From Cyanobacteriota bacterium (GTDB lineage Bacteria; Cyanobacteriota; Cyanobacteriia; Cyanobacteriales; Nostocaceae), in the NCBI GenBank assembly GCA_046045965.1, contig JBJOKS010000058.1, forward strand, positions 1 through 14,403: DNA of 14,403 nt. Direction: 5' to 3'. The notes beneath the pieces were generated by a model. That model searched no databases. It saw only the letters and a program-made list of their open reading frames with translations, and was not told the origin of the DNA. Of the stretch, positions 1 through 9,882 are shown piece by piece (the first letter of the stretch is position 1; every line of letters begins with the position of its first letter). A program made the translations under genes and the position numbers.

Positions 1-2
1 TG

Positions 3-200
3 ATTCATTTCATAGCAATTTATTCAATTCTTCAAAATCTAGCTTTAGGAAATGATACTTTTAATATCCGGTTTGCTGGTGCAACTCCACAGAATCAATT
101 ATTTGGGACTAGAGGTAGTTTAAACTCCAGGATTATATCTCTGGCCTTTCCATTTAGCAGCGGTAATGATGTTGTAGGTGATAGTGATAATTTGGGATAA
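3..200 (+). CDS. 3' end of a hypothetical protein, 5'-truncated by the window
   Basis: Frame 3 is open from the window start to TAA 198-200 (IHFIAIYSILQNLALG...DSDNLG*). It is co-oriented with the next ORF and 6 nt upstream of it. Confidence 0.6.
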   Translation: MHFIAIYSILQNLALGNDTFNIRFAGATPQNQLFGTRGSLNSRIISLAFPFSSGNDVVGDSDNLG

Positions 201-206
201 CCAGTA

Positions 207-773
207 GTGACTACATATTGTAATCCCGGTGATACCGCTCGCGTAACCTTTCCAGATGGGAGTGTTAGAGATTTCAGTAACACTCCCATTGATATATCAG
301 TAGGTGAAGACTACCCTATTTGTCCTACCTATACGGTAAATGTTAGTTACACACAGGTCAGGTCTGACGGATTTGTACAGAATGGAGTTCGTCTTGGACG
401 GCGTTTACCTGTTAGAGCTTATGTCACGGGTGATAATTCTCAGTCTTATATAGTTGATACAGTTTGTTCGGGTGGACAACCAACTGGTGAACGATTTGCA
501 TTGTTAACCGCTGGTTCTCCTGGCGTGATAAGAAGTTTGGTAATTACTGGAATTACGAATAGTCTAACAGCAGCACCAGTGACACCTACTTATAGAATTA
601 CCGTCACATCCGATGGGACTAATCTTTTTACTGGTAGTTTCAATAATCCCAATTATTCAGTCGAATGCATCACAAGTTGCCCACCAAACACACTAGATTG
701 TGGCGATTGCTGCTTAGACTGCGAAGATATTTTTTATAAACTTTGTAACATAAACCAATTATTTATAGGGTAA
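207..773 (+). CDS. Hypothetical protein, beta-rich with Cys-rich C-terminus; possible virion protein
   Basis: 188-aa ORF with GTG start, T/V/G-rich, ending CPPNTLDCGDCCLDC; tight operon spacing. Confidence 0.7.
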   Translation: MTTYCNPGDTARVTFPDGSVRDFSNTPIDISVGEDYPICPTYTVNVSYTQVRSDGFVQNGVRLGRRLPVRAYVTGDNSQSYIVDTVCSGGQPTGERFALLTAGSPGVIRSLVITGITNSLTAAPVTPTYRITVTSDGTNLFTGSFNNPNYSVECITSCPPNTLDCGDCCLDCEDIFYKLCNINQLFIG

Positions 774-779
774 TATATC

Positions 780-2612
780 ATGACAACTTGTAGCCAAATT
801 AATAATGAATTAGGAGCAATAAGTAGTAGTGCAAATAGCATAAGTGCGAAATTAGATAATATTTTAACCCAGAATAACGATATATTAAATAGAATTGGCG
901 GTATAGAATCTAGGTTAGGTGCTATTGAAAGTAGATTGAATGGTTTTGATAGTAAACTTGATGCTATAAATAATTTAATAGATAGTTTAGAGAACATTAT
1001 TGTTACCGCAATAAATAATTTAGGTAATACATTACGTACCTTGATTAGTGAATTGATTGATCTCATAAGAAGTATATTTGGACGTAATAATAATGATAAA
1101 ATTGACGAAATATTAAGTGAAATAAGACGAGCCGGCGAATTTATTATTGATGCAATCAGAATAGTTGGTAGGGAAGTAGTTTTAGGTAGAGACGCTATTC
1201 TTGAAGCGATAAAAAATTGCTGTAACAGAATAGAAGGTTTAATGAGAGAATTTAGAATAGATGGTAAAATACAAGAAATAATAGAAGAAATTAATCGTAG
1301 TGAAGGCTCTATAAAAGAATCTATAGGAGGTTCTGAAATTAGAATTATAAGACAAATAGATCAAAACGAAGGTAAACTAGATATTATAATCAGCAAAATA
1401 GATGGTTTAAATGGTACAGATGATTGGGTAACAAGAATATTATCAGCCATAGCAGGAGTAGCAGCAATATTAAATTTATTAAAAGATAATCAATGTGATA
1501 ATCAAAAAGTGATTGAGCGCATTGATGGTTGTTGCAGTCATTTGTCCAGTCTAATAGTTCAAATTAATTATACTTCTCAATTAACAGCTATATCAAACAA
1601 ACTAGATAGTAACACTACAATTTTAAATACCATCAACTCTACTACATTTTCTATAACAAACGCAGTCAATAATGTATCTAATCAAATTTCTAGGAACACT
1701 ACAATTTTAAATACCATCAACTCTACTACATTTTCTATAACAAACGCAGTCAATAATGTATCTAATCAAATTTCTAGGAACACTACAATTTTAAATACCA
1801 TCAACTCCACTACATTTTCTATAACAAACGCAGTCAATAATGTATCTAATCAAATTTCTGGCAACACTACAATTTTAAATACCATTAACTCTACTACATT
1901 TTCCACATCAAACGCTGACATAAACAATACATTATCGAATATAATCAATAGGACTTTATCTATACAAAATTCTATTGAAAACATCGAATGCAATGGAAGT
2001 GAACCGGTAGAAGTAGAGCTTGTTCAAATTAAAGTTCCGGTATTCGTCGAATGTGAGGGTAATGAACCAAAATTTGATGAAACAGACATATATGTACAAA
2101 AAGGACTAGAAGAAACAGAATTATTAAAGTTTACAAGAATAGCAGAAATTGAGGGAAAACAATGTAGAGAAGCTGTAGCAGTAATTCCTGAATGGTGGCA
2201 GGTTCGGCTAGAAGGTGGTGTACCTCAATTAGTTCTTGCTTGGGGGGAAGTAGATGCTAGTTCTGGAAAATGTTTGCATTCAAAATATGCAATGACAATT
2301 CCCCACTTTATCAACATCCGACCTGAGTCTTGTCCATTTCCAAGATACAGAAAAGGAAATTATGAGCTAATAGCTTATTTTAAAGACAATAGTAAGTTAA
2401 TAATTAACGCTTTCACCGAACATGAATGTGAAAGAGTGTATAACTCTATTCTTCCCTGGATTGATCAAGAATATGCAAGTTCTGTTAGATACAAAGTAGG
2501 CAAGCGGGTTAGTTACCAGTTTAAAGAGGTTTGGGTATGTCCTAAATTTGGGAAATATTTTTCACAGGGGAATAGAGACACAAACCCCGACTGGACAGTG
2601 TACTTTAATTAA
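780..2612 (+). CDS. Long coiled-coil protein with 28-aa internal repeats and a globular C-terminal domain; possible fibre, spike or tape-measure-like protein
   Basis: 610-aa ORF with heptad I/L pattern over ~400 aa and a C-terminal domain (VIPEWWQVRLEGG...). Function is inferred only. Confidence 0.8.
   Translation: MTTCSQINNELGAISSSANSISAKLDNILTQNNDILNRIGGIESRLGAIESRLNGFDSKLDAINNLIDSLENIIVTAINNLGNTLRTLISELIDLIRSIFGRNNNDKIDEILSEIRRAGEFIIDAIRIVGREVVLGRDAILEAIKNCCNRIEGLMREFRIDGKIQEIIEEINRSEGSIKESIGGSEIRIIRQIDQNEGKLDIIISKIDGLNGTDDWVTRILSAIAGVAAILNLLKDNQCDNQKVIERIDGCCSHLSSLIVQINYTSQLTAISNKLDSNTTILNTINSTTFSITNAVNNVSNQISRNTTILNTINSTTFSITNAVNNVSNQISRNTTILNTINSTTFSITNAVNNVSNQISGNTTILNTINSTTFSTSNADINNTLSNIINRTLSIQNSIENIECNGSEPVEVELVQIKVPVFVECEGNEPKFDETDIYVQKGLEETELLKFTRIAEIEGKQCREAVAVIPEWWQVRLEGGVPQLVLAWGEVDASSGKCLHSKYAMTIPHFINIRPESCPFPRYRKGNYELIAYFKDNSKLIINAFTEHECERVYNSILPWIDQEYASSVRYKVGKRVSYQFKEVWVCPKFGKYFSQGNRDTNPDWTVYFN
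1611..1903 (+). repeat. In-frame 84-bp tandem repeat, ~3.5 copies
   Basis: Units start at 1611, 1695, 1779 and 1863 (partial) and encode NTTILNTINSTTFSITNAVNNVSNQIS(R/G); near-identical at DNA level. Confidence 0.97.
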
Positions 2613-2728
2613 CACTCGATCCAGCGCCAGGGCTTAAGTCCCGGCAGTAGTCTAGTGTATGTCCTGATGCACACAAAAATATTGCCAACTTAAGATATTC
2701 ATAAATCTAATCAACAAAAAGGTATTTT

Positions 2729-2986
2729 ATGACTGCAAAAATTGCCGGTGCTGATTTAACCACGTTCAGCGCATTAAATAGTTTAGAACAACAACTTATG
2801 TTCCTTGCAGGTATGCTATTAACAGAACAGAATTCTTATAATGTAGCTAACCCAACTGCACCCAGAAACGTCGTCGCAATTGCTCCAGCGTATGCTACTC
2901 GAACTGCCACCCTACAATGTCAGTTCACTATAGAATCTGACTCGGTTTTGCAAAGCCTTCATGAAAATATAACTCCTGCTTTTTAG
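2729..2986 (+). CDS. Small hypothetical protein (85 aa)
   Basis: ATG preceded by AAAAGGT; co-oriented within the + strand block. Confidence 0.75.
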   Translation: MTAKIAGADLTTFSALNSLEQQLMFLAGMLLTEQNSYNVANPTAPRNVVAIAPAYATRTATLQCQFTIESDSVLQSLHENITPAF

Positions 2987-3004
2987 TAATAAAAAATAAT
3001 TATT

Positions 3005-3565
3005 ATGGCATCACCTCAACGTCCATTAACTGGAGTACGACTCACTTATGAGTTAACGATGGGAACCGTAAAATACAGAGTAAGGATCAAGGAATCCATT
3101 GGCAAATGGTTAGGACTACGCCCCGTTGGACCACAAACAGGAACATTTGCAAGTGGTCCGAATTCTGGTAGGCGATTTTTACGAGCGCCGGCTGGTTTTA
3201 AATTCCAAAGCTTTACTTTCCTACTTCGTCCTGGAGTAACAATAACAGAGCCTATTCCTGGTGACTGCACAGGAGGAACCAGAAGTAGAGAAATATGTAC
3301 ATTTACTCTGGGATTTCCTCGCGGTCTTAAAGAAACACCTATTAACAGGTGGCGTGTTGAATCTTGGGCGCGAGGCACAACACGCGCAAATGACATAATC
3401 GGAATGATTACACCGTCGGGAGTTAAACACGTATGGCGTGAATCCCTAGCAGGTCAGACTGGAATACTCCCAAATGGATTACCCAACCTTCCTTCATTGC
3501 CCGATGGTTTTGATCTTGGTGATGTAATAGGACTAACTGGATCAATCCTCCCGTTACTGTTTTAA
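3005..3565 (+). CDS. Hypothetical protein (186 aa), basic, Gly/Pro-rich with hydrophobic C-terminal tail
   Basis: ORF 18 nt after the previous stop and followed by a long inverted repeat. Confidence 0.75.
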   Translation: MASPQRPLTGVRLTYELTMGTVKYRVRIKESIGKWLGLRPVGPQTGTFASGPNSGRRFLRAPAGFKFQSFTFLLRPGVTITEPIPGDCTGGTRSREICTFTLGFPRGLKETPINRWRVESWARGTTRANDIIGMITPSGVKHVWRESLAGQTGILPNGLPNLPSLPDGFDLGDVIGLTGSILPLLF

Positions 3566-3567
3566 TG

Positions 3568-3612
3568 TTTAGTTAAAAAGCTAAGTAACAAACCTCTAGC
3601 TTTTTAACTAAA
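3568..3612. terminator. 16-bp perfect inverted repeat; possible terminator or protein-binding site
   Basis: TTTAGTTAAAAAGCTA (3568-3583) and TAGCTTTTTAACTAAA (3597-3612) with a 13-nt loop, directly after the stop codon. Confidence 0.55.
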
Positions 3613-3666
3613 ACTATGACTAACTATAATTCCATTTAACAGATAAAACAGATAAAACAGATAAAA

Positions 3667-4032
3667 ATGACAAAAAATGTTATTAAAAAATCGGATTATG
3701 AATTTACAATTTCATTTTCAGATTTACCTGATGAACTGAACCTGAACTTTAAACCATTGGTCGAATCTTTTAATTTACATCTTCTTTACAATAAATTTGT
3801 ACTTTGTCACTGGCAAGCTCGTCCTAAAGGTTTAAGAGGATTTGGCTGGTATGATTTCTTGTCTAAAAAGTATTATTCTATTGATTGGAATAATATTAAA
3901 GTTGAATCAAAATCAATTCCTATTCAGGTAAATGAAATTGAATTTCCCACGGCTTTACCTTCCGCGGTATTGCTTTTCCCTGACTCTTATTTAGTAAAAA
4001 AAACCAACTACTGGAAGCTAACAGATGAGTAG
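3667..4032 (+). CDS. Hypothetical protein (121 aa)
   Basis: ORF overlapping the next gene by 8 nt; TATAAT at 3625-3630 upstream. Confidence 0.7.
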   Translation: MTKNVIKKSDYEFTISFSDLPDELNLNFKPLVESFNLHLLYNKFVLCHWQARPKGLRGFGWYDFLSKKYYSIDWNNIKVESKSIPIQVNEIEFPTALPSAVLLFPDSYLVKKTNYWKLTDE

Positions 4033-4498
4033 GATTTTGGACTTTAAAAATCCTCTAAACTTTTCTTTGGTTTATACTCAAAGCTTACAAGCAGTACCAA
4101 TCAGATCCGCTACAGGAGCAATTATTGATTATTTTCCAATAACAGAAATTATTATCCCTATTATATTTAACAGACCTGTGTGTGCGGTAAATGTAACGAC
4201 TGCTGTACCAGTAGGTAGGATTTGGCGCTATGCAGGAAAGGTAAGCAGAATATTTGACTTTGCTCTAGGTGAAGCATTTTCTGCTGATGAGAGAAAGCAT
4301 TTATTTTTAGGAAGATGGAACATCTGCTTATTTGACAGAATTTTACCTAATGACTACAGGATTGCATATTTACCACCACGGTGGTTTATTAATGTAAATG
4401 TTTCTGTTTACCAATATGAAGGAGTTATTGGAGATACTTTAGAAAATGATATTGCTGCTATTAAAAATTCTTTAAATTTACTATTACCAAATGAATGA
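4025..4498 (+). CDS. Hypothetical beta-rich protein (157 aa)
   Basis: Coupled overlaps with both neighbours (ATGA overlap at 4495-4498). Confidence 0.75.
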   Translation: MSRILDFKNPLNFSLVYTQSLQAVPIRSATGAIIDYFPITEIIIPIIFNRPVCAVNVTTAVPVGRIWRYAGKVSRIFDFALGEAFSADERKHLFLGRWNICLFDRILPNDYRIAYLPPRWFINVNVSVYQYEGVIGDTLENDIAAIKNSLNLLLPNE

Positions 4499-4746
4499 AA
4501 ATGGTTATTACTCAAGAGAAGATGGAATTTGTTGTTTTACTCTTAACAATATTTGGATCTTTCTACAAGCTTACACAAATTGAAAGTCGAATCAAGGAAA
4601 GCATTAAAGAAGTTCAAAAGGCCATTGAACTTCATGTTAAAGATAATGAACTGCTGATTTATCAGGTCAGGGAATTGCAATCAATTTTAAACGACCAACA
4701 AAAAATTCTGAAAAATAGTGGTTTGTTGCGTCGGGAAACAGATTAA
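4495..4746 (+). CDS. Small membrane protein with one TM helix and a coiled coil; holin-like candidate
   Basis: Hydrophobic FVVLLLTIFGSFY followed by a charged heptad segment; last gene before the terminator. Confidence 0.65.
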   Translation: MKMVITQEKMEFVVLLLTIFGSFYKLTQIESRIKESIKEVQKAIELHVKDNELLIYQVRELQSILNDQQKILKNSGLLRRETD

Positions 4747-4827
4747 TGGTATATTTGTACTTGCGGTGCTGTCATGAACTGGAAAAGGTTAACCAGCGCC
4801 GTACTATCCCGATAAGCACAAAAATCC

Positions 4828-4862
4828 AAAAACTCCCCCGGCGCGTGAGGGAGTTTTTTTTT
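4828..4862. terminator. Bidirectional intrinsic terminator between convergent gene blocks
   Basis: AAAAACTCCC (4828-4837) and GGGAGTTTTT (4849-4858), with a T run on + and an A run upstream. Confidence 0.85.
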
Positions 4863-4865
4863 ATT

Positions 4866-4893
4866 GAGTCAGGGGTCAGGAGTCAGGAGGCAG
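4866..4893. repeat. Heptameric STRR-type repeat (GAGTCAG-like x4)
   Basis: GAGTCAG GGGTCAG GAGTCAG GAGGCAG. The same family occurs at 11161-11180, and AGGTGAC x3 at 12221-12241. Such repeats are typical of heterocystous cyanobacteria. Confidence 0.8.
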
Positions 4894-5487
4894 TAACTGA
4901 TAAACTAGCTTATTTCCATTTATGCCAAACCCGCCCCTGATGAAATTTTCAATTTTATGGGGGGATATACCCAGTGCAATCGCCTTCTCAATCATCAACT
5001 TTCTTTCCAGTGCGATCGCATTTTCATGATTTCCCCCAGGAATATGAACATGATGAATTCGCTTGTCATAGTAACAGTAGCGGTAGTACCAATGTCTAGT
5101 TCCGTTGCGAGTTACATAATATTCCTCTACCCATTGAGTTTTTCTTTGTTCTGGAAGTGGGTAAGGTTTTTTTGGGTAGTCCTGTTTTTCTTGTTCTGGA
5201 AGTGCTGAAACTCTTATTTCTTCATCTTCCAGAACACTCATTGCCCGGACATTTACATCTGGGTGCAACTGCTCCCAATCAGTCCAGGAGCGGCCATAAC
5301 TTTCCTGATCAGGATAGTCATTTGGATCTGGTGGTTCCTCGCTGCTGTCATAGAAAAGCGTGGACTGACCATTCTCCTCAACTTTTCCAGAACAATCTAA
5401 AACTATCTCATCCCAATACGGGTCTACATCTCTAGCTCTAGATGGTAATGAGGTGAATTCATCTAAATTAAATAATGTTCCGGTCAT
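4876..5487 (-). CDS. Hypothetical protein: acidic N-terminus, basic/aromatic C-terminal domain, possibly DNA-binding
   Basis: Start re-placed to ATG 5487 (MTGTLFNL...), which has a GAGGAGG SD and an ATGA overlap with the upstream small ORF. C-terminal motif WVEEYYVTRNGTRHWYYRYCY...HVHIPGG. Confidence 0.75.
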   Translation of the reverse strand: MTGTLFNLDEFTSLPSRARDVDPYWDEIVLDCSGKVEENGQSTLFYDSSEEPPDPNDYPDQESYGRSWTDWEQLHPDVNVRAMSVLEDEEIRVSALPEQEKQDYPKKPYPLPEQRKTQWVEEYYVTRNGTRHWYYRYCYYDKRIHHVHIPGGNHENAIALERKLMIEKAIALGISPHKIENFIRGGFGINGNKLVYQLLPPDS

Positions 5488-5660
5488 GACCCCTCCTCTA
5501 TTGGTGTGGGGGGAATTGAGTAATGAGGGCATGGGGAATAATAGCCATTGGCAAGGTGAAGGTAAAAACTACCATCACAGTAAATGGCAAATGGCAAATA
5601 ATTAATGGCAACTTCCCGCTCTTTAATAAAGCCGTTGTTGTTGTATAAGCGTACTTTCAT
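5484..5660 (-). CDS. Small hypothetical protein (58 aa), not in the ORF track
   Basis: Hand translation MKVRLYNNNGFIKEREVAINYLPFAIYCDGSFYLHLANGYYSPCPHYSIPPTPIEEGS*. It fills the gap in the - strand operon and its stop overlaps the next ATG. Confidence 0.6.
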   Translation of the reverse strand: MKVRLYNNNGFIKEREVAINYLPFAIYCDGSFYLHLANGYYSPCPHYSIPPTPIEEGS

Positions 5661-5697
5661 GGTTGGTAAACACTTGGTAAACGGTTACTAATTAAAT

Positions 5698-6357
5698 TCA
5701 AAAATAATCCTGTACTTCCATCACAACACCACCAAAATGCTGACAGATAGAAACATAATTAGTGGGTTGTTCCCAGTAGCGCCGTCTTAAACAACAGCGA
5801 ACCCATCCTTCTGGATTAATAATTTTTTCAGCAGCGCCGCGAAGTTTAAATAACAGCAGGGCGGCTTTAATTTCAAACTGTGGACGGTTTAAAACTTCTG
5901 TTTCTTCAGTGTCAAAATGAATACCCTCCTGAGACATCAACTGTTGATTAGATAAGATATGCTGCTGCTGAACATCAGCATTAACGGAATTATCAGGGTT
6001 TGGATTGGGTGTTTTGTAAGTAGAGTTAGGATTGTGTAATTTTTGTTTTTTAGGTGGTGTTAACCATTCCAATGGTCTAACTACTAACTTAAATATCTTC
6101 CAGGAATACTGTTTAATAACTTGTATTACACGATTTTCTGCTAACAAGTTAAACATCCGTTTCAGGTAATTGTGAGCGTAGCTCTTACCTCTATGTTTTT
6201 TCACCCATTCGTTAAATTTTGATAAGTCTGGTTCTACTTCCTCTTCAATTCCTTCTCTGATCAGCCACTGCCATAAAAGTTTTGCAGCTGGTGGAATTTT
6301 GTTTTTTAGACAGAATTGATCATGTTTTTCTGTCCATTCTGTTGATGTTTTTGGCAT
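5698..6357 (-). CDS. Putative replication initiator-like protein (winged-helix N-terminus, linker, C-terminal helical domain)
   Basis: IPPAAKLLWQWL N-terminus, low-complexity P/N/Q linker and C-terminal IINPEGWVRCCLRRRYW, resembling phage/plasmid replication organizers. Recognised by pattern only. Confidence 0.55.
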   Translation of the reverse strand: MPKTSTEWTEKHDQFCLKNKIPPAAKLLWQWLIREGIEEEVEPDLSKFNEWVKKHRGKSYAHNYLKRMFNLLAENRVIQVIKQYSWKIFKLVVRPLEWLTPPKKQKLHNPNSTYKTPNPNPDNSVNADVQQQHILSNQQLMSQEGIHFDTEETEVLNRPQFEIKAALLLFKLRGAAEKIINPEGWVRCCLRRRYWEQPTNYVSICQHFGGVVMEVQDYF

Positions 6358-6465
6358 AATGTATAAATGACCACCCCTCTCTGGTGGTATTCAAGTTTTT
6401 AAATACAGGAATCTGTCACCACCTAGCGCGTAGGTGGTTGGAATGTTGAGGCTGGATTTTAGATT

Positions 6466-6732
6466 TTAGGGTTTGGGCGGAGCAAAACTATCTGGTAGGT
6501 CCTGGATAGCCTTGCCGTGAGATTTCAAAAGTTTGTCTAGTGCCTTGAGTTGGGGAATTGTAAAGGATGGAACATTAACTCCAGCCTCCCATCGGCTAAC
6601 AGTTCTTAAACTTACGCCAATAGTTCTGCCAAATTCCTCCTGACTCATGCCAAGCTCGTCTCTAAGGTGTGCCAAGGGTGATTTGCCCCCATTTTGACTT
6701 TCCGGTTTTTGATCGTTAGGTGTTTTATTCAT
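6466..6732 (-). CDS. XRE/Cro-CI family helix-turn-helix transcriptional regulator (likely repressor)
   Basis: LAHLRDELGMSQEEFGRTIGVSLRTVSRWEAGVNVP is a canonical HTH_3 motif. Start re-placed to ATG 6732 because the upstream part overlaps the promoter/operator region. Confidence 0.9.
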   Translation of the reverse strand: MNKTPNDQKPESQNGGKSPLAHLRDELGMSQEEFGRTIGVSLRTVSRWEAGVNVPSFTIPQLKALDKLLKSHGKAIQDLPDSFAPPKP

Positions 6733-6740
6733 TATAACCT

Positions 6741-6797
6741 GCCATGACATCATGGCATGACCTATTGACATAAATCAAGTAGTCATGACATAATGAC
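6741..6797. promoter_or_regulatory. Divergent overlapping promoters with two palindromic operators
   Basis: Operators GCCATGA-CA-TCATGGC (6741-6756) and GTCAT-GACATA-ATGAC (6782-6797). Rightward promoter: TTGACA 6765-6770, 18 bp, extended -10 TGaCATAAT ending 6794. Leftward promoter: TTGATT (6778-6773), 18 bp, CATGAT (6754-6749). Confidence 0.75.
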
Positions 6798-6800
6798 GTA

Positions 6801-7292
6801 TGTGAGACAACAAGAATCCAACCGAGTTGGAAACCCGGTAGATGGTAAGCACTTGGTTGGATGATTGAAAGTCTCTCACTTTCGAGAACGACCTGACACG
6901 GGGATGATGCTGTATCATTCCCGTGACCGCTCCCTCCTCTCCTTTGCCTTGTGCCTGAGAGGACACACCATACTAAGTCGGAGCAAGCACCCACGCATTT
7001 TTGACTGCGAGTGTCCGCGCGTGGAACCAACCCCCAGCACACAGATGAATTGCGCGTCCCCATTAATTTGGGGACTTTTCCTCTCATGTCTGCAATCTAT
7101 AAACTGATTGCATATATCAACATACTTATTTTTCAGAGAGTTTGGAGGTGATGCTAGACGACAATCAACATAAACATGATCTGAAGTGAACTGCTTTCCC
7201 GTTTCTCCCACGGGAAGTAATTACAATATTTTGCATTTATGACGCTTCTGTTCCAAGTCAATATTAGCTGGTGGTTAATATTGACTTTTTCT
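6801..7292 (+). ncRNA. Candidate long structured ncRNA or leader RNA
   Basis: About ten consecutive hairpins, several with G-U pairs only on the + strand, between the promoter and a terminator-like stem; no convincing CDS. Confidence 0.5.
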
Positions 7293-7293
7293 T
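7255..7293 (+). terminator. Intrinsic terminator or attenuator
   Basis: AAGTCAATATTAGC pairs with GTTAATATTGACTT (one G-U), running into TTTTTCTT. Confidence 0.65.
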
Positions 7294-7343
7294 AACGATG
7301 ACATCCCTTTTGACCGCAGCACATCCGAAGGAGGTGATTTTTG

Positions 7344-7550
7344 ATGAAGCTTCTCAAACTTCCCAGTGGTGACTATATCAATTTAGAATTAGCTTGCACT
7401 GTAGAATTTGGTACTTTTCCTGACGGAAGTGGTGTCTCGCACCAAAGATGCAAAATTTTTTGGAGTGACAACAACTCTGATGTTTATTGCGACAATGTAG
7501 CAATTTTTATCAAAGACTATCTTGATAAAAATCATGATAGTTTGAATTAG
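7344..7550 (+). CDS. Small hypothetical protein (68 aa)
   Basis: Strong SD AAGGAGGT at 7328-7335 and ATG at 7344; ends 14 nt before the ribozyme. Confidence 0.75.
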   Translation: MKLLKLPSGDYINLELACTVEFGTFPDGSGVSHQRCKIFWSDNNSDVYCDNVAIFIKDYLDKNHDSLN

Positions 7551-7564
7551 ATCACTATAATCAA

Positions 7565-7650
7565 CCGCCTGACGATACGACTAACTTATAGTCGGCTACC
7601 TGGACCCGGTAGCCGAAACACACCCCGCGGTGTGTCGCGGATTGGGTCCA
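7565..7650 (+). ncRNA. Type I hammerhead ribozyme with pseudoknot and an extra inserted hairpin
   Basis: Stem I CCGC 7565-7568/GCGG 7637-7640; core CUGACGA 7569-7575; stem II GGCUACC 7594-7600/GGUAGCC 7608-7614; GAAA 7615-7618; stem III CACACC 7619-7624/GGUGUG 7629-7634; GUC cleavage triplet, cut after C7636. Loop II UGGACCC 7601-7607 pairs with GGGUCCA 7644-7650. Confidence 0.88.
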
Positions 7651-7805
7651 AACCAATCTTGCAAACTGCAAAAGTAACTTAAGGCTTTAAAAGAGAATTA
7701 AGCTCTTTGGCTTTTTTCCATTCGTAAGCTTGGTTGCTTTTGCTGCTTTGAGGCTGAATCAGGCTGATTAATTTCTGGCCTTTGGGTGATTCGTAAGCGT
7801 AACTT
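7637..7805 (+). ncRNA. IS110 bridge RNA with target-binding and donor-binding loops; ends approximate
   Basis: Two parallel internal loops of form GCUUU-N10-hairpin-...AUUC-GUAAGC (7684-7729, 7745-7798). Segment 7751-7759 equals junction 9005-9013, and 7716-7723 is the reverse complement of junction 9010-9017. Confidence 0.82.
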
Positions 7806-7829
7806 TAGTTCACACCCTTTACAAATTAT

Positions 7830-9011
7830 ATGAGAATAGTTGGTTTAGATGTCTCTAAATCATCGGTTTCGTGTTGCCTTTTAACAGAAAAACCGAGTGA
7901 TGTTAGAGAATTTTATTATGACTGCAAGTTTTACCACTTCCAGAACAACCAAGAGGGTATTTCTGGAATGCTGGCATTAAAGCCAGATGTGGCAATTCTT
8001 GAACCAACCGGGGTCAATTACTCCAAATTCTGGACTCAACTTCTGACCCGTGCTGGAGTAGAAATTAGATTAGTAGGACATAAGGAATTGCGGCGCTATC
8101 GGGAAAACCATTTACAGTTACCAGATAAAGACGACGATGCTGATTCACTGGCCATAGCTTGCTACTACTTTGATTACTGTGGCGATCGCTCTCGATGGGT
8201 GAGAGTTTTAGACCCGGTGGTTTCCAGAATCAGGGAATTAATCTTGAGATTGAACCATCTAAGTAAGGTTCAGTCCCCAATTATTAACCGTGCTAGACAG
8301 GATTTAGCTTGGCAGTTTCCAGAAGTAGCATTGGTTAATTCTCAGCGTGGTGTTTCTGGGAACGTACCTTTGCTTTGGGGATGGTTGGCAGGAGAAAGGC
8401 AAAGTACAAAATATGATCGACTTTACTCCCAAACCGCCGGCGTGGGATTAACTGATTCGGTAAAGTTTCACTCGCAGCGCATTTGTTCTTTACAGAGAGA
8501 GGAACAATTAATTGAGGATGAGTTGGCTGTATTGCTAAAGGACGCTAGGTTTGAAAAATATATACAAGTGTTTGAAGAATTTAAATTTGGCGATCGCCTT
8601 CAGGCTACTATCCTTAGTCAAATTTTCCCACTAGAAAACTTTTTTGGTGAAGATGGTAAACCAGTGGTAAAAATTCGTAAGGGTAGGATTTCTGGAAAAC
8701 CTACCAAAAGATACTTGAGCTTGAGACGATTTCAGAAGGCGTTAGGATACGCACCTACTCAAGAATCATCTGGGGATATTTCCAAAAATAAAGTATCTGG
8801 TGGGAGTGCTGTTTGTAGAAAAGCAATCTGGCAGTGGGTATTTAGCAGTGTTGAACCCGCCCGCCGTCGTTCCAATCCACTGGTCAAAGAGTTGGGTAAC
8901 TGGCTTGATCAGGAAAAGAAAGCAGGTGTACCAGTGGCATTGGTCAGGAGCAGAACGGCAGTAAAAGCTGTTAAGCTCTTATTTAAAAAACTGGTAAATT
9001 TCTTAGGCTGA
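7830..9011 (+). CDS. IS110-family DEDD recombinase/transposase
   Basis: N-terminal RuvC-like motifs GLDVSK, ILEPTG and KDDDADS, a coiled-coil middle, and a C-terminal Tnp domain with GYAPTQESSG (catalytic Ser region); intact 393 aa. Confidence 0.95.
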   Translation: MRIVGLDVSKSSVSCCLLTEKPSDVREFYYDCKFYHFQNNQEGISGMLALKPDVAILEPTGVNYSKFWTQLLTRAGVEIRLVGHKELRRYRENHLQLPDKDDDADSLAIACYYFDYCGDRSRWVRVLDPVVSRIRELILRLNHLSKVQSPIINRARQDLAWQFPEVALVNSQRGVSGNVPLLWGWLAGERQSTKYDRLYSQTAGVGLTDSVKFHSQRICSLQREEQLIEDELAVLLKDARFEKYIQVFEEFKFGDRLQATILSQIFPLENFFGEDGKPVVKIRKGRISGKPTKRYLSLRRFQKALGYAPTQESSGDISKNKVSGGSAVCRKAIWQWVFSSVEPARRRSNPLVKELGNWLDQEKKAGVPVALVRSRTAVKAVKLLFKKLVNFLG

Positions 9012-9389
9012 ATGGAAGACTATCGAGATAGGTTAGTTGTCATTGTCGCTGGTTATAGTGAAGAAATGTCGCAGTTTATTAATACTAATCCTGGGTTACA
9101 ATCGAGATTTAATAGATACTTTTATTTCGATGACTATAAACCAGAAGAACTATTAAATATTTTTGCAGGAATATGTAAGCAACAACATTATAGAATCACC
9201 CCACGAGGTCAAGAAAAATTATTGCAACAGTTTACCAAATTGTATAATGAAAAAGATAATAGTTTTGGAAATGGTAGACTTGTCAGAAATATGTTTGAGA
9301 AAATAATTGAAAGACAAGCTAACAGATTGGTGAAAATCAATGCTATTAACAAAGAAATGATGATGACTATTACCTGGGAGGATGTTTAA
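9012..9389 (+). pseudogene. 3' portion of an interrupted SpoVK/CbbX-family AAA+ ATPase gene
   Basis: MEDYRDRLVVIVAGY...NPGLQSRF...FGNGRLVRNMFEK matches the post-Walker-B and lid region. Walker A/B are absent because the sequence is fused directly to the recombinase stop. Confidence 0.88.
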
Positions 9390-9654
9390 TAACTTATCAA
9401 AAATATCACTGAATTGTTAAAAAGAGTCGGGAATATTATGCTATATTAAAATAGTATCTATTCTAAAAAACAAAAGACTGCTTGTTGCTCATGATATGCC
9501 AGCTGTTTTTTGGCCTCACAAATGAGCTGGCTGATGAGTTTCCCAGGGATTCCTTCAATTGACTCCCCTCCAATGATAGGGGTATTTGATTCGTGGCTAT
9601 CTTTTCTACCAGTTCTGATCTGGTAAGTCCCATCCCTTTGGTGGGTTTTTCATT

Positions 9655-9882
9655 AAATAAAGTATCTGGTGGTAGCACTGTCTGTAGAAAGGCGATATGG
9701 CAATGGGTTTTTGCCGCTGTGGAGCCAAAGCGCCGCCGCACTAATTTACTGGTGAAAGAGTTGGGGGAATGGTTGGATCAGGAAAAATCCACAGGTAAGC
9801 CGGTGACATTGGTGAGAAGTCGAACCGCAGTAAAAGCTGTTAAGCTCTTGTTTAAAAAATTGGTAAATCTTTTAGACTGAAT
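9655..9882 (+). pseudogene. 3' remnant of a second, paralogous IS110 recombinase
   Basis: Aligns without gaps to 8786-9013 (offset 869); 61 of 74 aa identical by hand count; also ends ...CTGAAT. Confidence 0.92.

Follow-up and report, generated by a model that had tools for sequence, protein, structure and literature searches.

A bridge RNA in a Nostocaceae genome whose guides predict the insertion site of a large, cargo-carrying IS110-family element

A stretch of 14,403 nucleotides (nt) from a cyanobacterium of the family Nostocaceae (GenBank assembly GCA_046045965.1, contig JBJOKS010000058.1, forward strand), referred to below as the window, carries a genuine bridge RNA next to the gene for an IS110-family recombinase. 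The guides of this RNA predict the site into which the surrounding element was inserted, and that element is a cargo-carrying unit of about 10 kb, not a small insertion sequence (IS). Positions 7567 to 7800 very probably encode the RNA, about 235 nt long by its predicted ends, for the recombinase gene downstream, and we consider with high confidence that bridge-RNA-guided insertion of the large element is the best explanation of the locus. Contigs C46, C58, and C93 belong to the same genome (G000), C58 being the window, and L-numbers denote loci of relatives.

Two parallel internal loops were read directly on the plus strand at 7684-7798, upstream of the recombinase gene (7830-9011, plus strand). 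In loop 1, GCTTT (7684-7688) is followed by AAAAGAGAAT (7689-7698), TTCCATTC (7716-7723), and GTAAGC (7724-7729); loop 2 repeats this arrangement with GCTTT (7745-7749), GAGGCTGAAT (7750-7759), GGTGATTC (7785-7792), and GTAAGC (7793-7798). All strings quoted in the original prediction, which had been made from the sequence of the window alone, were present where it had placed them. The 9-mer AGGCTGAAT, the core of AAGGCTGAAT, has exactly two copies in the window, at 7751 and 9005, against 0.11 expected from shuffled sequences, and none of 200 shuffles had two or more. The reverse complement of TTCCATTC, which is GAATGGAA, is located at 9010-9017. Within the window the scaffold GCTTT-N6-GAA-...-TTC-NN-AAGC occurs twice, in the two loops only, with a shuffle expectation of 0.00. 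The two-loop observation is exact and lies far beyond chance.

The loops are part of a longer noncoding RNA whose stems covary. In a consensus structure built from 29 diverse sequences, four helices close both loops, and 95.7% of the cells at its 27 base pairs are paired, whereas slid controls reached at most 63.7%; compensatory changes on both sides were found at 14 of the 27 pairs, and none of 500 shuffles was as high. The target-binding loop, with its outer stem and inner hairpin, spans 7674-7741, and the donor-binding loop spans 7742-7798 (both plus strand). Ahead of them a single-sequence fold predicted a 5' domain of three hairpins (7567-7673, plus strand), starting at a conserved GCCTGAYGA, and the fold of 7563-7815 had a z score of -4.65. 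Conservation among close relatives begins at about 7563-7567, just after a predicted sigma-70-type promoter (7534-7561, plus strand; ATGATA, 16 nt, TATAAT) that matched the consensus at 10 of 12 positions; a -10-like box occupies the position of its -10 box (7556-7561) in close relatives as well. The bridge RNA is probably transcribed from this promoter of its own and would fold as a 5' hairpin domain followed by the two internal loops. Because the RNA gene lies many kilobases from the left end of the element, a junction promoter of the IS621 type should be unable to drive it. Rfam 15 gave no family at its gathering score, the sole match in 6700-7900 being a chance hit to a long noncoding RNA (E = 0.45). 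Public runs X1 and X8 contained a variant with 475 different letters between 7543 and 7555, immediately upstream of the predicted -10 box.

The target guides point to an interrupted gene for an AAA+ ATPase. The left target guide consists of AAAGA (7690-7694) and the core GAA (7695-7697), and the right target guide consists of TTCCA (7716-7720) and TTC (7721-7723), all on the plus strand. To the right of the element, the right target half-site TGGAA (9013-9017) opens the C-terminal 125 codons of the ATPase gene (9013-9389, plus strand; Pfam AAA_lid_6), the 125-amino-acid (aa) frame beginning at 9012. The N-terminal half, 177 aa ending in ...DTLLKR (FGQEAIDTLLKR), lies on the minus strand of C46, where the junction reads ...TTATTAAAGAGAA/TCCCCAATCAC (a slash marks the cut), that is, the flank AAAGAGAA followed by the left end of the element. 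The empty site, AAAGAGAATGGAA, was found in the intact 303-aa ATPase gene of two genomes of the same genus (L100 and L101); three further genomes were one base off, five of the seven loci examined matched, and intact 303-aa orthologues were present in three same-genus genomes. The core GAA stands at both junctions (C46:481-479 and window 9010-9012) and only once in the empty site. The target deduced in the original prediction, AAAGA-GAAT-GGAA, read in frame as K-R-M-E, is identical to the empty site of the two same-genus genomes. Its proposal of a two-loop bridge RNA of an IS110-family recombinase, with loop 1 binding the target and loop 2 the donor, is supported, and it had read the left target, right target, and left donor guides correctly.

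Covariation of the guides with the flanks extends this agreement to relatives. A scan of genome contigs gave 186 relatives of the recombinase, and the best 80 of these 186 loci were almost all from Nostocales; loops were sought in 79 sources (78 loci and the window), and both were parsed in 75. The target loop has the pattern GCTTT-N-N5-GAA-N-hairpin-N6-TTC-NNAAGC, in which the N5 and N6 segments are variable. The 75 sources have 69 different left target guides and 68 different right ones, but only 6 left donor guides. Right ends, defined as the left donor guide sequence with at most one mismatch, were found in 65 of the 75 sources, 0-670 nt past the recombinase stop codon. Of the six bases that follow their GAA, a mean of 4.4 agreed with the right target guide (n = 65), against 1.94 when permuted (maximum, 2.46 in 1000); nine flanks matched at 6 positions, 34 at 5, 10 at 4, and 12 at 3 or fewer, so that 53 of 65 reached at least 4 of 6. 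In 21 loci on long contigs, which offered up to 19 kb each around the recombinase, a GAA/TCCCCA-type left end was found 6.5-15.8 kb upstream of the loops in 17, as a single candidate site in 11 and as the better of two in 6. No such site was found in L081, L018, or L038 (7.1, 13.6, and 9.0 kb available); L071 was not parsed in this survey, yet AGACTGAA/TCCCCAG there matches its left target guide. On the left, agreement of the five bases before GAA with the left target guide was 4.67 of 5 positions (n = 18, including the G000 junction; permuted, 1.82; maximum, 2.83 in 2000), and the right flanks of the bounded set matched at 4.41 of 5 (n = 17; permuted, 1.72). The target guides therefore covary with both flanks, as the original prediction had proposed to check across homologues.

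Two positions outside the guides were also compared. By eye, the tenth base of the left guides tracked neither the first base of the flank nor that of the left end and is therefore not counted as guide or core. In 17 of 18 targets, and in the right ends shown as well, the ninth base left of the cut is a T. The left guides can have any of the four bases at their matching first position, which suggests that the conserved T is contacted by the protein and not by guide pairing. As an observation apart, the left target guides of L071 (GAGACTGAA) and L012 (GAGAGTGAA) are identical to the right-end sequence of the other subfamily, and both elements adjoin such sequences (left junctions, L124 and L122); elements may target sites that resemble the right end of another element.

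In place of the 2-nt core of IS621, the original prediction had seen a longer core, GAAT, shared by all four segments. The core is indeed longer, at 3 nt, but its T does not belong to it family-wide. Because the right target guide ends in TTC in 75 of 75 sources and the left target guide contains GAA in 72 of 75, the core is GAA; the T that follows it in this copy belongs to the left end and, separately, to this target, being the first base of each. On the donor side, the left donor guide AGGCT (7751-7755) with GAA (7756-7758; plus strand) equals the right end of the element (9005-9012, plus strand), which comprises the left donor half-site AGGCT and the core and contains the recombinase stop codon, the reading frame ending within AGGCTGAA. 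Similarity to other copies stops at 9012/9013. The guide matches the right end exactly in the window and with at most one mismatch in 65 of the 75 sources.

The right donor half-site differs from what had been predicted. In place of CACC, the left junction reads AAAGAGAA/TCCCCAATCAC, so that the left end is TCCCCAA, and in 16 of 17 relatives the left end starts with TCCCCA. The predicted left junction, AAAGAGAATCACC, was absent from the window, where only four matches with three mismatches occurred against 5.8 expected, and absent as an exact string from the whole genome; neither AAAGAGAATCACC nor AGGCTGAATCACC stands at any boundary in the window or genome. The right donor guide is best described as TTGGG (7782-7786), a bulged T (7787), and GATTC (7788-7792; plus strand), which matches the left end on C46. 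Its segment (U)UUGGGUGAUUC is nearly invariant among the parsed loops; the reverse complement of UUGGGUGAUUC is GAATCACCCAA, and the left end with the core is GAATCCCCAA. The reverse complement of the whole guide, GAATC[A]CCCAA, stands against GAA/TCCCCAA on C46, and with U7787 bulged the two would form ten contiguous pairs. In L074 the usual GAUUC and UUGGG are replaced by GGUUC and UUUGG (UUUUGGUGGUUC) and the left end is GAA/CCCCAAAG, CCCCAAA in place of TCCCCAA, again allowing ten pairs with compensation at two positions. Two other natural variants of this guide (L071, GGGCGATTC; L078, GGGAGATTC) alter only the proposed bulge base. We favor the bulged U because of the compensation in L074, the bulge-only changes in L071 and L078, and the flipped-out U159 and U160 of IS621. 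The donor guides thus match both ends of the element, the right donor guide with one bulge.

The 393-aa product of the gene at 7830-9011 has the fold and domains of a bridge recombinase. It matched NCBIfam NF051857, "IS110 family transposase," with 547 bits over residues 1-393 of 393. The DEDD RuvC-like domain (Pfam PF01548, DEDD_Tnp_IS110) scored 31.5 bits against a cutoff of 29 and was present in all 28 aligned members. The C-terminal Tnp domain (PF02371, Transposase_20) scored 19.7 bits in the window protein, below its cutoff of 21.3, and matched in 28 of 28 members at E values of up to 1 (best, 4.8e-7); taken with the full-length NCBIfam and Foldseek matches, these results point to its presence. 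An AlphaFold2 model had a predicted local distance difference test (pLDDT) score of 87.9, and the best Foldseek matches were the IS621 and ISCro4 recombinases (E = 4.5e-9 to 6.7e-8; template modeling score, 0.37-0.55), full length in the case of IS621; a sequence search of the PDB gave no match for the recombinase or for its 28-member profile. Among aligned members, D7, D101, D105, and S314-G315 are invariant and E58 is at least 90% conserved. S314-G315 lies within the loop 311-323, the sole segment with pLDDT below 50, and this loop is a candidate counterpart of the S241-G242 loop of IS621. By analogy with D11, E60, D102, and D105 of IS621, the putative catalytic residues are D7, E58, D101, and D105, together with S314.

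These observations can be assembled into a mechanism. Bound by the recombinase, the RNA would pair its right target guide, UUCCA plus UUC, with the top strand GAA plus TGGAA of the right half of the target. In the donor loop, AGGCU plus GAA would pair at the right end of the element, and UUGGG-U-GAUUC would pair with GAA plus TC plus CCCAA at the left end, with one U flipped out. The donor is assumed to be the joined right-left form AGGCT-GAA-TCCCCAAT, probably circular. Strand exchange catalyzed by the recombinase at the 3-nt core GAA would then place the whole element into the K-R-M codons of the AAA+ ATPase gene and leave GAA at both junctions.

Public sequencing runs were available as assembled contigs only, from which expression levels and RNA ends cannot be read. 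One contig, identical to 7637-7766 and from a library labeled as RNA, had a depth of 312, against 5-11 for neighboring contigs of the same run, and a DNA run had no comparable excess. In a contig of a related element from an RNA-labeled run, the right end ...GAAT continues into CCCCAAAAG, resembling the left end, as a joined right-left donor would. The depth and this contig are weak hints in favor of the bridge-RNA reading. The joined right-left junction was absent from the assembly, and a 30-nt loose-end consensus from run X5 was in no stored locus, nor in the genome. In a variant that co-occurs in the public runs, 9 of 16 substitutions in 7629-7873 fall inside the two target guides.

The element is large. 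The original prediction had assumed a compact IS, and this did not hold, the left end lying on another contig and relatives measuring 7.8-17.2 kb. Sixteen bounded relatives span 7,831-17,171 bp (median, about 14.9 kb), and none had the compact form of about 1.3-1.6 kb with the RNA gene in its left end. The copy in this genome spans 9.5 kb or more: C46:478..1, an assembly gap, and C58:1-9012. A clean 10.1-kb copy on a complete 178-kb plasmid record, CP150887.1, reads T-AAAAA-GAA/TCCCCAG ... TAGACTGAA/GTTGT, and both of its flanks match its own guides at 5 of 5 positions.

The cargo region (window 1-7533) runs off the start of the contig, with the left end at G000:C46:478..1 on the minus strand, and holds mostly open reading frames (ORFs) without a known family. 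They include a 610-aa coiled-coil ORF (780-2612), a conserved 219-aa ORF (5698-6357, minus strand), and an Xre-type helix-turn-helix gene (6466-6771, minus strand). The cargo is collinear with a decayed paralogue on C93 and with the ORFs of a relative, L111. Pfam and PHROGs gave HTH_3 and repressor matches only, the 610-aa protein had no match in the phage collection, and no resistance gene was recognized. The 219-aa protein, which has no Pfam or NCBIfam family, is 85% identical to its L111 counterpart and is present in 11 of 17 elements. All 17 of the 17 bounded elements carry a small tyrosine recombinase (Pfam Phage_integrase, 63 bits), always on the strand of the IS110 recombinase, and five other L111 ORFs, with L111 proteins as queries, occur in 10-13 of 17, in each case on the other strand. 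This consistency marks the cargo as a conserved backbone and not a random gene set. In this genome the 3' end of the tyrosine recombinase gene abuts the C46 junction; its N-terminal 36 codons were not found with the C-terminal fragment as query.

Other readings of the locus were weighed against bridge-RNA-guided insertion of the large element. The loops could be only a conserved structured leader of the recombinase mRNA, their flank matches being coincidental; the lack of an Rfam 15 family match would fit this, as would the fact that the bridge RNA was not observed directly, but the guides, with 69 and 68 variants among 75, vary extremely between stems that are conserved, and they follow the flanks in permutation tests. 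The covariation already contradicts a mere leader, to which we give almost no credence. Alternatively, the locus could be a canonical IS of some 1.47 kb that begins at about 7548 after GAAT (7544-7547), its left flank later replaced and the DNA upstream unrelated. In favor are that GAAT and the TATAAT after it, which resemble the core and the -10 half of a junction promoter, and similarity to close relatives that starts only at about 7563. Against this, no left-end motif complementary to the right donor guide stands at about 7548; strings of the GAATCACC type stand at no boundary, their matches being confined to 3 of 79 sources and all internal; apart from scattered chance matches, the 2.5 kb upstream of the recombinase held no left target guide match in any of 75 loci; the true junction, AAAGAGAA/TCCCCAA, shares the left-end motif of 17 relatives, 6.5-15.8 kb upstream of the loops; and the upstream genes are syntenic cargo in relatives. 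A small IS is already contradicted by these findings and is very improbable.

The large unit might alternatively move by its own tyrosine recombinase or as a plasmid, with the IS110 gene a passenger that makes only the right junction. The tyrosine recombinase, besides its presence in all 17 bounded elements, has a homologue 4-7 kb upstream of the IS110 recombinase in the five genomes first tested, and a language-model search (ESM Atlas), the only one to do so, gave RepA_N-, HTH_36-, and DnaD_N-type replication-initiator leads, as leads only, for the conserved 219-aa protein. What speaks for guidance by the bridge RNA is that the left junction is also specified by it: agreement between left flank and left target guide reaches 4.67 of 5 (n = 18), the right donor guide fits the left end and has one compensatory variant, and GAA stands at both junctions and singly in the empty site, a second, att-like repeat pair not having been searched for. 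We regard a passenger role for the IS110 gene as improbable.

Several observations weigh against bridge-RNA-guided insertion of the whole unit as proposed here. The left junction named in the original prediction, AAAGAGAAT-CACC, is not the one found, which refutes that half-site; our model of a one-U-bulged pairing between UUGGG-U-GAUUC and the left end was needed in its place, and without the bulge just 7 of 9 positions of the right donor guide pair. The right end was missing in 10 of 75 sources, eight having none in the available DNA and two too little flank. Twelve of the 65 right flanks match at no more than 3 of 6 positions, and poor fits include L072 (3 of 5 on the left and 2 of 5 on the right) and L024 (3 of 5 on the left). 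Of two candidate ends at a locus, the better match was retained (6 of the 17 left ends and 8 of the 65 right ends), which biases the comparison slightly toward the bridge-RNA hypothesis. The gap from C46:1 to C58:1 was not bridged, contig-end k-mers joining only the start of C58 with the end of C93. Finally, the left arm (C46:1-478 and window 1-4900) is inverted relative to L111, the closest bounded relative, and the tyrosine recombinase gene stands at the left end on the strand opposite to that in 17 of 17 relatives. On account of the inverted arm and the flipped strand, we take this copy to be rearranged. No inverted repeats of at least 9 nt were found between the left end and window 4400-5000, so such repeats do not explain the inversion.

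Further element-related sequences were noted in this genome. The whole of C93 (L002) is a decayed, internally deleted paralogue of window 1-9012, matching it in six collinear blocks (88-97% identity). The bridge RNA and roughly the first 33 recombinase codons are missing from it, it has an in-frame TAA, and it ends on the right at AGGCTGAA/GTAATATAGG. The sequence GGTGAA/TCACTCTCCTGTTTG, present in C93, L012, L013, and L081, was considered as a left end and rejected, since it is conserved on both sides and is the 5' region of the Xre-type gene. Beyond the element, window 9593-9882 is the 3' remnant of a second, related one, with a 95-aa C-terminal recombinase frame and 78% DNA identity, ending at TTTTAGACTGAA/TAATTAAGG about 270 nt past the ATPase stop codon. 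Between the Xre gene and small plus-strand ORFs, 6790-7110 is 83-97% identical to C93 and L012 and folds into a strong RNA structure (z = -4.8, plus strand; -3.75, minus strand); it gave no Rfam match and holds only implausible overlapping ORFs, and it may be a second noncoding RNA of the element.

The Nostocales clade of large bridge-RNA-guided elements is a variant of the known bridge-RNA/IS110 kind, in which RNA binding, circle formation, and activity are predicted from sequence. For a wider proposal we see an even balance: that Nostocales harbor a family of elements of about 8-17 kb with a conserved backbone, in which bridge recombinase and bridge RNA form the integration module, so that these are RNA-programmed integrative elements, possibly replicating as plasmids, and not cargo-laden IS; that the RNA promoter lies far from the left end; and that the target loop, with its 69 left-guide variants among 75, has diversified across chromosomal and plasmid sites under the grammar T-N5-GAA-N5. 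An RNA-guided recombinase acting as the integrase of a stable, gene-rich cyanobacterial element would extend the idea of large IS110 units from accreted cargo to a conserved element type. Bridge recombinases are under development as programmable genome-writing tools, and this clade differs from IS621 in its units of 8-17 kb, the specification of both ends by the RNA, its GAA core, and its short, symmetric 5-nt arms. Its dozens of natural target reprogrammings, each paired with a genomic site, are a ready data set on specificity. Relative to the portions of the literature compared, the GAA core, the T-N5-GAA-N5 grammar, the single-U bulge, the predicted internal promoter, and a clade-wide conserved backbone with both ends fully matched are additions. 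A full-text literature search combining IS110 or bridge RNA with Nostoc, Anabaena, or cyanobacteria gave no such element among the matches listed.

Elements of the IS1111 subgroup, or seekRNA elements, share the protein superfamily and the RNA-guided logic, and their RNA is encoded downstream of the recombinase, unlike the upstream RNA here. Bridge RNAs were described in 2024 for the IS621/IS110 group (Durrant et al. 2024, PMC11208160; Hiraizumi et al. 2024, PMC11208158), and in the parts of those papers compared, IS621 shares several features with the present element. Its RNA lies directly upstream of the recombinase and presents the target-binding loop before the donor-binding loop; left guides equal the top strand, right guides are complementary to it, and all four pairings include the core; the pairing of the right donor guide is interrupted, with U159 and U160 flipped out; and the protein, the best structural match of ours, joins a DEDD RuvC-like domain to a Tnp domain with a Ser-Gly loop, for which S314-G315 is the candidate counterpart here. 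The differences, taken from the same parts, are a core of GAA (3 nt) here and CT there, with 5-nt variable arms on both sides here; a T nine bases left of the cut in target and donor; a single bulged U; a longer 5' domain, in an RNA of about 235 nt versus 177; a 393-aa protein at 13-15% identity that matched no PDB chain by sequence; and an RNA gene 6.5-15.8 kb from the left end, in elements of 7.8-17 kb versus 1.3 kb. The ISCro4 bridge recombinase (PDB 9T56) is the second-best full-length structural match (E = 2.2e-8) at only 15% identity, a likeness known from structure and not from a sequence-level comparison.

Closest in size are the expanded, cargo-bearing IS110 loci of a 2026 preprint by Hu, Xie, Yang, and Rubin (bioRxiv 10.64898/2026.08.14.744561), whose main text does not mention "cyanobacter," Nostoc, or Anabaena. 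As described there, such loci exceed 2 kb, have ends matching the bridge RNA, and carry multigene cargo, and one locus of 9.2 kb was found as a circle, all of which resembles the elements described here. That source presents a continuum of sizes that builds up step by step, in loci whose boundaries are half matched and whose cargo is plasmid derived and includes resistance genes. In Nostocales, by comparison with that part of the source, both boundaries are fully matched in most elements and not half matched, and a backbone conserved across the clade takes the place of stepwise accretion.
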